From an uncultured Methanosarcinales archaeon (GTDB taxonomy: Archaea; Nanobdellota; Nanobdellia; Woesearchaeales; CAIVOO01), in NCBI GenBank assembly GCA_964485195.1, contig CAZAIK010000003.1:64800-125992 (forward strand): a stretch of DNA of 61,193 nucleotides, read 5' to 3'. How positions within the stretch are numbered: position 1 is the first letter of the stretch; the number at the start of each line of letters is the position of its first letter. Positions 6,001 to 9,000 of this stretch are shown piece after piece. A program made the position numbers.

Positions 6001-9000
6001 ATTGGGATACTTCATAGTCCAGTAAATCCCCATAGTGTCCAGCAGAATGACAGCGATGTTCTGGGCCACTTCCTCAGGCAGGTCTGAAACCCCTTCTGCA
6101 ATCACCCCCATAGTGTAAGACTTCCCAGAGCCTCTCTTTCCCACGACAAAAATTACGTGAGAACGGGCCACGTCCATATAGATGTTGTTTGACAGGGAAG
6201 TGACCTGCCCCATCTTCACATAATGCCTTCCCAGAAAGACTATTCCTTTCTCACCATACTTTTTTTTCTCTTCCTCATCCCTGCCGATAATTATATCATA
6301 AGGCATATTACCCATCTTATGGATAATTATTTAAATAATTTGCTTTTACACTTAGGCAATGGCCGGGAAAAGGAAAGGCAGAAAACCAAAAAAAGCCAGA
6401 AAGCCCAAGGAAGAGAAAAATTTCCCCCTGACAAAAGAGCTTCTGATAGTTATAATAATTGTTGTAATTGCAATACTTCTTGCTTATATGTTCTATTTTG
6501 CAGCTTCCAAGACAAAACCAGCTTTGGCTGATGTAAACGGAGTTCCCATAACGCAGCAGGACCTTAATGAAATAGCACTTACAGTTCCTCCCAATATGCG
6601 GGAGAACATAAGCCAGGAAGAGCTGCTGGAGCAGGCCATAAACTTTGCAATTTTAAAGCAGGAAGCAAAGAAAATAGGTGTGGAAGTCACGGATGAGGAG
6701 GTGGAAGCGAGTATCGACGCTTCACTCCAAAGCGCAGGATTAACCAGAGAGCACCTGGAACAGTCGCTGGAGCAGCAGAGAATAGAAGTTAATGACATAT
6801 TCAACGCCTACAAAAAACAGCTTTTATCTTATAAGTTTATGAATGAAACAATACTCCAGGACATACCTGTCAGTGAAGAAGAGATAAAAGGATTTTACGA
6901 ACAGTATAAAGACACGTTACAGCAGGATTATGAAGCTGTAAAGCAGGACATTAACAGGACAATTGTCATAATAAAAAGCCAGCAAATGCTTGCTGAATGG
7001 TTTGAGCAGAAAAGGCAGGAGTATGACATCGTGAGGTATAAATGACAGTGAAGATAATTCCCCTGGAAAGCGGAAGATTCATGCTAAAATGGAAATCCAT
7101 GGAGAAAGAACAGCCTGGCTGCGTTAATTATGAAGTCAGGGTAGGAAAAGAGATAGTGGGGCTTGTGCCTGCCGGGGGGAAGGAGGAATATACCTGCATT
7201 GTAGGGGAAGTTCCCAGGAATGCAATAGTTAAAATCACTGCCCTGGGTCCCAGGAACAGGGAGACCAAGACAGCTGACGAGGGCGTTTACCAGGGAGTGG
7301 GCATTTAGCATAATTTTATAAAAGCTCTTTCTTAACATCATCTATGAAAAAAGACCTTTCCACTCTTGAAATCAGGCAGTTGGTGAATGAATTCCAGTCT
7401 TTGTTAAATGGCAGGATAGACAAAATTTATCAGCTGTCCAAAAAAGAGTTTCTTTTTAAAATCCGCATAACTGGCGGCAACAGGTTCTTGAAAATAAGGG
7501 ACAAGTTCATATTCCTTCACCCTGAAAAAGAGGAAACACCTGCAAAGCCCACGACATTCTGCATGGTCTTGAGAAAACACCTTGAAGGCAGGAAAGTCAG
7601 TAAAATACTCCAGAAGGGCTCTGAAAGAATAATAGTTATTGGGATAAACCCTTTCCTTTTGATTATGGAATTATACGGGCAGACAAATATGGTATTGTGC
7701 GATGAGAATTACAGCATAATCGCTGTCAACAGGCCAAGCAGGGAAATAAAAAAAGGGGAAAAATATGTTTTTCCAGAGAAAAGGGATATTTTCTGGATCA
7801 AAGAGAAGGGATTCATTGAAACGCTAAATTCCTCAAAACAGCCGCTGGTGAAAAAACTTGCAGCTCTCGTGGGCGGAATTTATTCCGAGGAGATATGCTT
7901 CAGGGCGGGAATTGCAAAGGATAGGGAAAGACTGTCTGAAAAAGAGGCAAAACAGGTGTTTAATACATTTAGTTCCCTGCTGAATGAAGAGCCTTCCCCA
8001 ATGACTGTTTATGATGAAAAGCCTGTTGACGCCACTGTTTATGATTTAAAAGTTTATGAGGGCAGAAACAAGGTAGCATTCTCTGCTTTTTACGAAGCTG
8101 TAGACAGTTATCTGACCCAGACAACAGAAAAAGCAGAGGAAAGCGAGCTGGCGAGAAAATACCAGGGGGGAATAGAGAAAATAGAGAAGATAATAGCAAC
8201 GCAAAAAAAGAATGTTGACAAGCTCAAAAAGGAAATGGAGCAAAACCAGAGAGCCGGGGAAATGATTTATGAAAGGTACCAGGAACTTGCGAAATTAATG
8301 AAAGAATTTGAAGAGGCGAGAAAGAAAATGTCCTGGGATGAGATAAAATCAAGAATAAAGAACAAGAAGATAAAGAGCGTAGAAGAAAAAAACCAGAAAA
8401 TAATTGTAGAGCTGTAAAACAAATTCCTAGCAAGGTACAGAGGAGTATTGGGGAGGACTACACGAAACTTCTTGAAGTTAAAACAAAAAAAATCCATAAG
8501 AATAAACACCTTAAGATTGCTGAAGAGGCTTTGCTGGCAAGGCCAAAAGATACGGGGATAAAACTGCAGAAAATGCCTTTTCCTGGTTTTGGTTGTTTTT
8601 ATGAAGCTGATGGCTCAACCCTGCATACCTGCAGGGCTATTATTATCTTCAGGAAGCGGCTTCACAGCTGCCTGTTAAAATATTAAATCCCGGAAATGGA
8701 TTTGGTGCTGGACTGGGTATTAAAAAACCACAAAATCAAGCTTGAAAAAATTGAATTGGATGTCGGAACTCCCGCTCTTCCTGGATTTGAAGGCAAAAAA
8801 ATACATTCCTGATCTGAAAAAATGCATCAGAACCTGGCTCTATAAAACAGGCACCCAGCCATTTTTTATAGCTAAAATAAGCAAGAAGTAACTATTGAAA
8901 AGTAGAAAGGTATATAAGGCAGGTATAGCTGCATTTGGGTATGGGATTTGGCGAAAAGTGGAGGCACAGAAGATCAGACTTAAGAACTGCCTTGAAAGAA

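Follow-up and report, generated by a model that had tools for sequence, protein, structure and literature searches.

Is the short open reading frame at positions 7344-8417 of the window a gene in its own right, a gene cut off by error or decay, or one part of a factor that is completed elsewhere in the genome? The window is the whole stretch of DNA analysed, 61,193 nucleotides of contig CAZAIK010000003.1 from an uncultured archaeon of the order Woesearchaeales (class Nanobdellia), and the frame belongs to the family of the archaeal ribosome-quality-control (RQC) factor RqcH, the homologue of Rqc2/NEMF. The genome-wide survey's note had claimed that RqcH is encoded here by two genes, and this was borne out by our analysis: the window frame of 357 aa and a second frame of 263 aa on contig C2 of the same genome (G000:C2:156975-157766) are complementary on two protein family profiles, NFACT_N and RqcH_arch. 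The best explanation as a whole, to which we give a probability of roughly 0.7, is that fission of an RqcH gene produced an N and a C subunit which reassemble into a two-subunit factor.

Two complementary genes

The window gene lies on the + strand, is intact from ATG to TAA, and matches NFACT_N (Pfam PF05833; profile positions 4-369 of 456) at 3.1e-49 and RqcH_arch (NCBIfam NF041120; positions 1-361 of 645) at 2.8e-68 (231.2 bits). The C2 gene takes up the NFACT_N profile at positions 369-440 and matches RqcH_arch over positions 381-640 (1.2e-88, 298.6 bits); it also carries the NFACT-R domain (NFACT-R_1, PF05670; 1e-30 at residues 79-188), which is missing from the window gene. The two RqcH_arch matches do not overlap, and they leave only about 19 positions unassigned, so that the gap noted earlier, in which residues 393-468 of the reference appeared to be covered by neither half, is an effect of pairwise alignment. 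The equivalog NF041120 ('ribosome rescue protein RqcH') has a cut-off of 400 bits for one protein over its 645 positions; each half stays below this value (231 and 299 bits) and the sum of the two exceeds it. Single-chain archaeal RqcH has the same domains in the same order, within one protein of ~590-750 aa in the sister families of the class, whereas here they are distributed over two unlinked genes. An NFACT_N search across the genome, which is 99.5% complete and in 32 contigs, returned three matches, namely the window ORF, the C2 ORF and one on C5. The C5 match was rejected as an RqcH-like gene, being an Fpg/Nei-type glycosylase with only the H2TH module in common, and no RqcH-like gene beyond the two halves was found by this search.

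The AF2 models, for which 74 N halves and 77 C halves were aligned, suggest that each protein folds confidently without its partner, with a pLDDT of 91.3 for the N half and 89.4 for the C half. The N half begins with a beta-rich NFACT-N domain (residues 1-130; 7344-7733, + strand) according to the model and the profile alignment, and the profile of the 74 N halves aligns with the N domains of NEMF, RqcH and PavA. In the profile-to-PDB alignment, E94-R95 (7623-7628, + strand) stand where NEMF and RqcH have their D-R motif, the N-half 'seRI' lying over 'VDRI' of NEMF and 'NDRI' of PavA. R95 is invariant among the 74 N halves and E94 is conserved in at least 90% of them, so the N halves carry E-R at the D-R position of NFACT-N, a conservative change. 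The next domain is a putative HhH (H2TH-like) domain at residues 154-213 (7803-7982, + strand), which is assigned from the model helices (154-162, 168-176, 178-188 and 199-213) and a weak Pfam H2TH match (E 0.014, residues 170-215) and lies within the matches to both NFACT_N and RqcH_arch. A single 62-residue helix, the coiled-coil helix alpha-1, is modelled at residues 249-310 (8088-8273, + strand). The remainder of the protein makes up most of the M (middle) domain (8277-8414, + strand; model and junction alignment), with two short helices (312-328 and 331-340) and two strands (343-347 and 352-355) within residues 312-357, and its final strand, residues 350-357, coincides with the end of the chain. 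The model of the C half starts with 10 unstructured residues and continues with a 69-residue helix (residues 11-79), the NFACT-R domain (about 81-190) and a small alpha/beta C-terminal domain.

The surroundings of the window gene were also inspected. About 25 nt 5' of the ATG, the TATA-box-like TTTTATAAAA (7314-7323, + strand) can be read from the sequence, and it is possible that it serves as the gene's own promoter and that the mRNA is leaderless. The genes of the two halves are unlinked and have no obvious common regulation. The genome also encodes the upstream splitting factor Pelota (198.7 bits, above the cut-off), and neither a Cdc48 nor a Pelota gene is found among the immediate neighbours in this genome. 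Directly downstream of the N half lies the remnant of a decayed gene; tblastn assigns the sequence past the N-half stop to a different gene family, and a Pfam scan of one frame of the remnant returned no family.

A short frame could also arise from a sequencing or assembly error, or mark a pseudogene with a premature stop, for which one may point to the 32-contig assembly and to the remnant directly 3' of the N half. This is extremely improbable, given that hundreds of genomes, closed ones included, share the stop position, that both ORFs are intact and conserved, and that what follows the stop belongs to another gene family. A contig from a second sample, which is from the same study and so not fully independent, agrees with 0 differences over positions 7350-8883; the stop codon is therefore no assembly slip.

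The site of the cut

The survey's note had placed the cut within the coiled coil that links the two lobes; an alignment of the junction in 11 full-length relatives from the class and 20 split pairs puts it elsewhere. The last strand of the N half reads '..NQKIIVEL', and the strand that follows it in the hairpin, 'MKIELSLKKS..', opens the C half. In the full-length relatives these two hairpin strands are linked by a short turn (2-4 residues), which is missing in the split pairs, and the strands of the halves and of the full-length proteins align residue for residue. On these aligned sequences, the strand ends at the junction and the short turn of the full-length proteins place the cut in the turn of the M-domain beta-hairpin, at the distal tip of the coiled coil and outside any helix.

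The ends of the two proteins are tightly fixed: the C-terminus lies within 0-1 residue of one alignment column in 65 of the 74 N halves, as does the N-terminus in 71 of the 77 C halves. The C-half frames of 417 and 479 aa reported earlier are present, but they are stop-to-stop frames that extend over upstream non-coding sequence, and the real start is the Met of the hairpin strand. Frames of 382-479 aa near some C halves, and a frame of 667 aa in one further genome (G080), were considered as fusions and rejected, as they consist of non-coding sequence or a neighbouring gene.

Two separately encoded halves might be rejoined covalently, by a split intein or by trans-splicing at the RNA level, and the split DNA polymerase of Nanoarchaeum, which uses a split intein, provides a precedent. 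The termini described above, with 0-1 residue beyond the hairpin strands in 65/74 and 71/77 proteins, leave no room for intein halves, and Pfam scans of both halves show no intein family, making rejoining scarcely conceivable.

Distribution and ancestry of the split

The two-gene state extends across the order, as the survey's note had claimed from a smaller sample. NF041120 was matched in 119 of 121 order genomes chosen as one per family, and a full-length RqcH above the cut-off was found in none of the 121. Among the matches listed, two classes were seen, covering positions 1 to ~378 and ~380 to 645, at separate places in the genomes. A second sample consisted of 234 order genomes, all at least 95% complete, of which 223 have the N half, 230 the C half and 223 both, so that joint presence or joint absence applies to 227 of the 234. 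Neither half was found in four genomes (G293, G069, G095 and G401), which come from four families; the C half alone was found in seven and the N half alone in none. In one of the seven C-only genomes (G011), a fragment of the N half lies at the end of a contig. The species with only a C half are scattered, and congeners of theirs in genera g123 and g48 have the N half; genomes with only the C half occur likewise in the first sample. The tally of 234 takes in four unpublished genomes (G297, G421, G358 and G265), all with both halves, and a further unpublished genome in the first sample (G112) has the C half only. Of the two, the C half is the better conserved, with ~50% identity to order relatives compared to ~35% for the N half.

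The halves also lie far apart in other genomes of the order, in agreement with the earlier claim: they are found at 592,811 and 174,315 on the one closed contig of G016, and on different contigs in G022 and G009. In the closed or near-closed genomes G016, G085 and G098, they are separated by 250-420 kb.

Outside the order, a full-length gene above the cut-off is present in 50 of 151 genomes sampled from the class, its open frame measuring 588-747 aa; single-frame genes that have diverged occur in further families, and 30 genomes of this sample have no match at E 1e-15. The absence of full-length genes from all 121 order genomes, when the class sample has them in 50 of 151, indicates that the split is derived. 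It is not confined to the order. Two separate matches were obtained in all 16 sampled genomes of family f143, and split genes occur in families f132, f145, f152 and f159 as well. Pairs of split ORFs were extracted from six genomes outside the order (G146, G243, G130, G199, G192 and G231), and the cut is at the same hairpin in G130, G231 and G192. In family f137 only an NFACT-R protein of ~200-270 aa remains. A seemingly split gene in an otherwise full-length family (G158) was rejected as an assembly artefact, both pieces running off contig ends. The cysS gene of G192 is located exactly in the cut; among the 72 loci examined (L008-L079; N-half loci with only 300-nt flanks), G192 was the one case of cysS beside either half, and in the genome under study cysS is on C2, away from the RqcH half.

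A quick gene tree (IQ-TREE, LG+G4) was computed from 20 full-length proteins and 20 concatenated pairs, leaving out G158 (contig ends) and G171 and G206 (N halves missed by single-sequence search). It joins the order with f145 and f152 in one split group beside the full-length families f147, f149 and f150, and places f143, f159 and f132 elsewhere. The best tree has two state changes, and a single origin of the split forms was not rejected (p-AU 0.27). The concatenated halves nest among the full-length proteins of the sister families.

This nesting bears on the idea that no gene was ever cut and that the halves are independent stand-alone NFACT-N and NFACT-R paralogues. Stand-alone NFACT-R proteins exist in other lineages, and the public databases give the halves separate names ('NFACT family protein' and 'DUF814 domain-containing protein'), both of which would suit such a history. 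Besides the tree, however, the halves adjoin on one profile, the break separates two strands of a single hairpin, and no full-length copy coexists with them in the 121 order genomes. Independent paralogues are thus very improbable, and it is nearly certain that RqcH underwent a genuine and ancient fission at the M-domain hairpin, which has been conserved.

Probable reassembly of the halves and related systems

Our preferred reading is that an ancestral single-chain archaeal rqcH was split exactly in the M-domain hairpin turn, at the outermost point of the coiled-coil arm, and that its products still work together. The window gene would provide the N subunit, comprising NFACT-N and HhH (which form the tRNA-facing module of RqcH in B. 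subtilis and of Rqc2/NEMF in eukaryotes), alpha-1 and the first hairpin strand, and the C2 gene the C subunit, comprising the second hairpin strand, helix alpha-2, the ribosome-contacting NFACT-R and the C-terminal domain. As modelled, reassembly would be non-covalent, with alpha-1 and alpha-2 zipping into an antiparallel coiled coil and the terminal strands of both subunits pairing to rebuild the hairpin, and the coiled-coil tip would be made jointly by the N and C subunits. Like single-chain RqcH, the two-subunit factor would then work on large subunits that are obstructed; 50S binding and C-terminal tailing by the split RqcH are predicted from homology only.

We modelled the putative interface with N-half residues 245-357 and C-half residues 1-90, in three runs with three controls. 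The ipSAE came to 0.65-0.66 in the three runs, compared to 0.00 for the best of the controls; 94% or more of the contacts were common to the runs, and the pLDDT of the partner did not fall below 84. Of 157 solved complexes used to calibrate this score, 116 come up to the mark, as do 2 of 215 mismatched pairs. The modelled contacts are antiparallel and follow a heptad pattern (N266-323 with C11-57, N301 with C18-22, N294 with C25-29), and strand pairing is predicted between N350-357 and C1-8. Both helices of the two-helix antiparallel coiled coil of RqcH are thus kept, on two chains, their pairing being that of the model only. Because single-chain RqcH and NEMF structures have been solved, the high score of the complex model may reflect likeness to them rather than binding. 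The separation of the two genes, with no obvious common regulation, and the E-R in place of D-R at the motif position also weigh against a joint factor. Apart from the model, two cooperating proteins are supported by three findings: the termini hardly vary, neither long helix has been lost, and in 227 of the 234 genomes the halves are present together (223 genomes) or absent together (4 genomes).

The survey's note had left it that the halves form a heterodimer or act separately, and the two possibilities do not fare equally. The complex model, the tightly fixed termini and the joint presence or absence in 227 of 234 genomes favour the heterodimer, and the halves probably form a two-subunit RQC factor. 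If the halves no longer cooperated, the C half alone would be a 50S-binding factor and the N half would be separate or dispensable. The finding of C-only genomes (7 of 234, with a similar pattern in the first sample) and of no N-only genome speaks for this, as do the higher conservation of the C half and the retention of only an NFACT-R protein in f137. Work on B. subtilis RqcH adds to it (bioRxiv 10.1101/2020.09.03.281279): only two direct 50S contacts are described there, one between NFACT-R and the A-site finger and one between the distal CC-M tip and uL11/H44; both map in or next to what is here the C half, and binding is described as not requiring the tRNA-facing NFACT-N and HhH. On the other hand, both halves are present in 223 of 234 genomes and missing together in four genomes from four families, the 62-residue helix and terminal strand of the N half have no evident use alone, and the complex model reached 0.66 against 0.00 in the controls. 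The C-only species are scattered, and the occurrence of the N half in their congeners makes assembly gaps a fair explanation for the C-only genomes, fitting them as well as loss does. The asymmetry of seven to zero exceeds what symmetric random gaps would give and hints that the C half can persist without its partner. On balance, separate action of the halves is unlikely, with a chance that is small and yet not negligible.

A doubtful further extension is a modular RqcH, in which the C subunit would be a self-sufficient 50S anchor that in some species persists alone and to which the tRNA-facing N subunit docks reversibly by way of the coiled coil, tailing would be a separable step open to recruitment, and the hairpin turn would be the one site at which a break is tolerated, cut more than once in DPANN, as in the best tree. 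The coiled coil of B. subtilis RqcH is described as opening in a scissor-like manner during its cycle (bioRxiv 10.1101/2020.09.03.281279).

On our reading of fission followed by reassembly, the split constitutes a natural experiment on RqcH/NEMF architecture, in which a very large archaeal order appears to manage without covalent continuity at the M-domain hairpin, the tip that in structures from bacteria and eukaryotes touches the uL11 stalk base. The two genes would offer a system already divided in two, in which one could ask which activities require the tRNA-facing module. For annotation, both genes should carry RqcH-subunit names instead of 'NFACT family protein' and 'DUF814 protein', and surveys that use a full-length cut-off wrongly score the order as lacking RqcH.

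The architecture agrees with that of known homologues beyond the archaea. Bacterial RqcH, with NFACT-N, HhH, CC-M and NFACT-R, is aligned by the N half at residues 13-319 (profile E 4e-29) and by the C half at residues 361-536; it differs in being one chain with a vestigial M hairpin and a D-R motif, and the archaeal proteins have a larger M domain, an extra C-terminal domain and E-R for D-R. With human NEMF and yeast Rqc2 (PDB 3J92, 9GY4, 8AAF) as references, the N-half profile aligns over its full length with NEMF 1-407 (E 1e-38), stopping at the first M-domain strand, and the C half aligns to NEMF 462-648 (8.5e-22). NEMF and Rqc2 each consist of one chain that exceeds 1000 aa and contains long insertions, and Listerin/Ltn1 acts with them.

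A split of this family has been in print since 2013. Table 1 of Podar et al. (PMC3655853) includes a 'Predicted RNA-binding protein' among split genes (NEQ 438-506, Nst 176-251; one site in both nanoarchaea), and supplementary file 2 of the same paper assigns Nst1_176 and Nst1_251 to arCOG01695/COG1293. As COG1293 is RqcH (bioRxiv 10.1101/2020.09.03.281279), the family was previously published as split in Nanoarchaeota under its old name, and the novelty of our observation is modest and incremental. The Nanoarchaeota case likewise involves two separate genes of the same family; it concerns two hyperthermophilic nanoarchaea, and in the part of that paper drawn on here it bears no link to RQC and no description of the cut, whereas the present split is order-wide and in another order. 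The likeness of the present split to that of NEQ/Nst is one of family and two-gene state; a shared hairpin site is known from the split relatives G130, G231 and G192 outside the order. We found no published account of a split RqcH in this order, or of its link to RQC, in the literature searched, to which subscription journals and supplements may add.

Gene splitting is a known trait of DPANN. The part of the DPANN review PMC6349945 used here names split reverse gyrase, tRNA synthetases and Dph1/2, and makes no mention of RqcH or NFACT. These cases are likewise fissions of informational genes, with unlinked halves in reduced genomes; compared with them, the RqcH of this order is distinguished by a cut site that is fixed across the whole of a large order.

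Possible loss and reduction of RqcH in relatives

Among the 234 Woesearchaeales genomes surveyed for both halves, each at least 95% complete, neither half of RqcH was found at E 1e-12 in G293, G069, G095 and G401 (95–99% complete). These four genomes represent four different families, so the complete RqcH factor may have been lost more than once. In family f137 of the class, only a short protein with NFACT-R, the ribosome-contacting domain of RqcH, is encoded, and the N half and the coiled-coil helix are missing. The 198-aa ORF (e.g., in locus L059, G189:C7:31787-32947) matches residues 69–260 of the C half; with NFACT-R alone retained, the RqcH system would be reduced still further in this family.

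Gene order around the two halves

In the class relative G192, both halves lie on the same strand with the cysteinyl-tRNA synthetase gene (cysS, 454 aa) exactly between them and overlapping both (locus L050, G192:C27:2333-6029). The N half occupies positions 277..1305 of this locus, cysS 1302..2666 and the C half 2651..3409, the arrangement spanning 277-3409. Such an order could have been left behind by a fission in which a gene was inserted, or it could be secondary; cysS was not found between or beside the halves in the other loci examined (L008-L079, with 300-nt flanks for N-half loci).

The surroundings of the C-half gene (L003, G000:C2:155472-158681) are conserved in the order, as seen by comparison with loci L008-L019 and L081. 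A T2SSF/FlaJ-like membrane protein is encoded 5' of the C half in G000, G115, G017, G100 and G007, and 3' of it, NAD(P)HX repair genes of the YjeF N- or C-type are found in G000, G105, G008, G083, G038 and G079. The dehydratase gene start overlaps the C-half stop in G000 (ATGA). No functional link of the C half to either kind of neighbour is evident.

Neighbours of the N half

The remains of a decayed NOL1/NOP2/Sun-type RNA methyltransferase gene lie immediately past the N-half stop (window 8420-8885, plus strand). In a tblastn search with the intact 295-aa gene located 3' of the N half in G080, residues 31–97 and 221–293 of the query were matched, with the matches spread over three different frames. 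Nothing is left of the catalytic core (about residues 98–220). An intact homologue is located elsewhere in G000 (C2:76175-76993). Two ORFs of 197 and 344 aa (8935-10559, plus strand) and one of 88 aa (7042-7308, plus strand) also adjoin the N half, and a Pfam scan at E 0.01 assigned none of the three to a family. Upstream of the N half, a SurA-N-like protein is encoded at 6359-7045, and the minus strand carries the gene for a HerA/DUF87-type ATPase at 4990-6315.

Elsewhere in the window, GC content is 0.30–0.34 at about 48000-54000 compared to about 0.42 in the remainder, and this stretch may be variable or of foreign origin.
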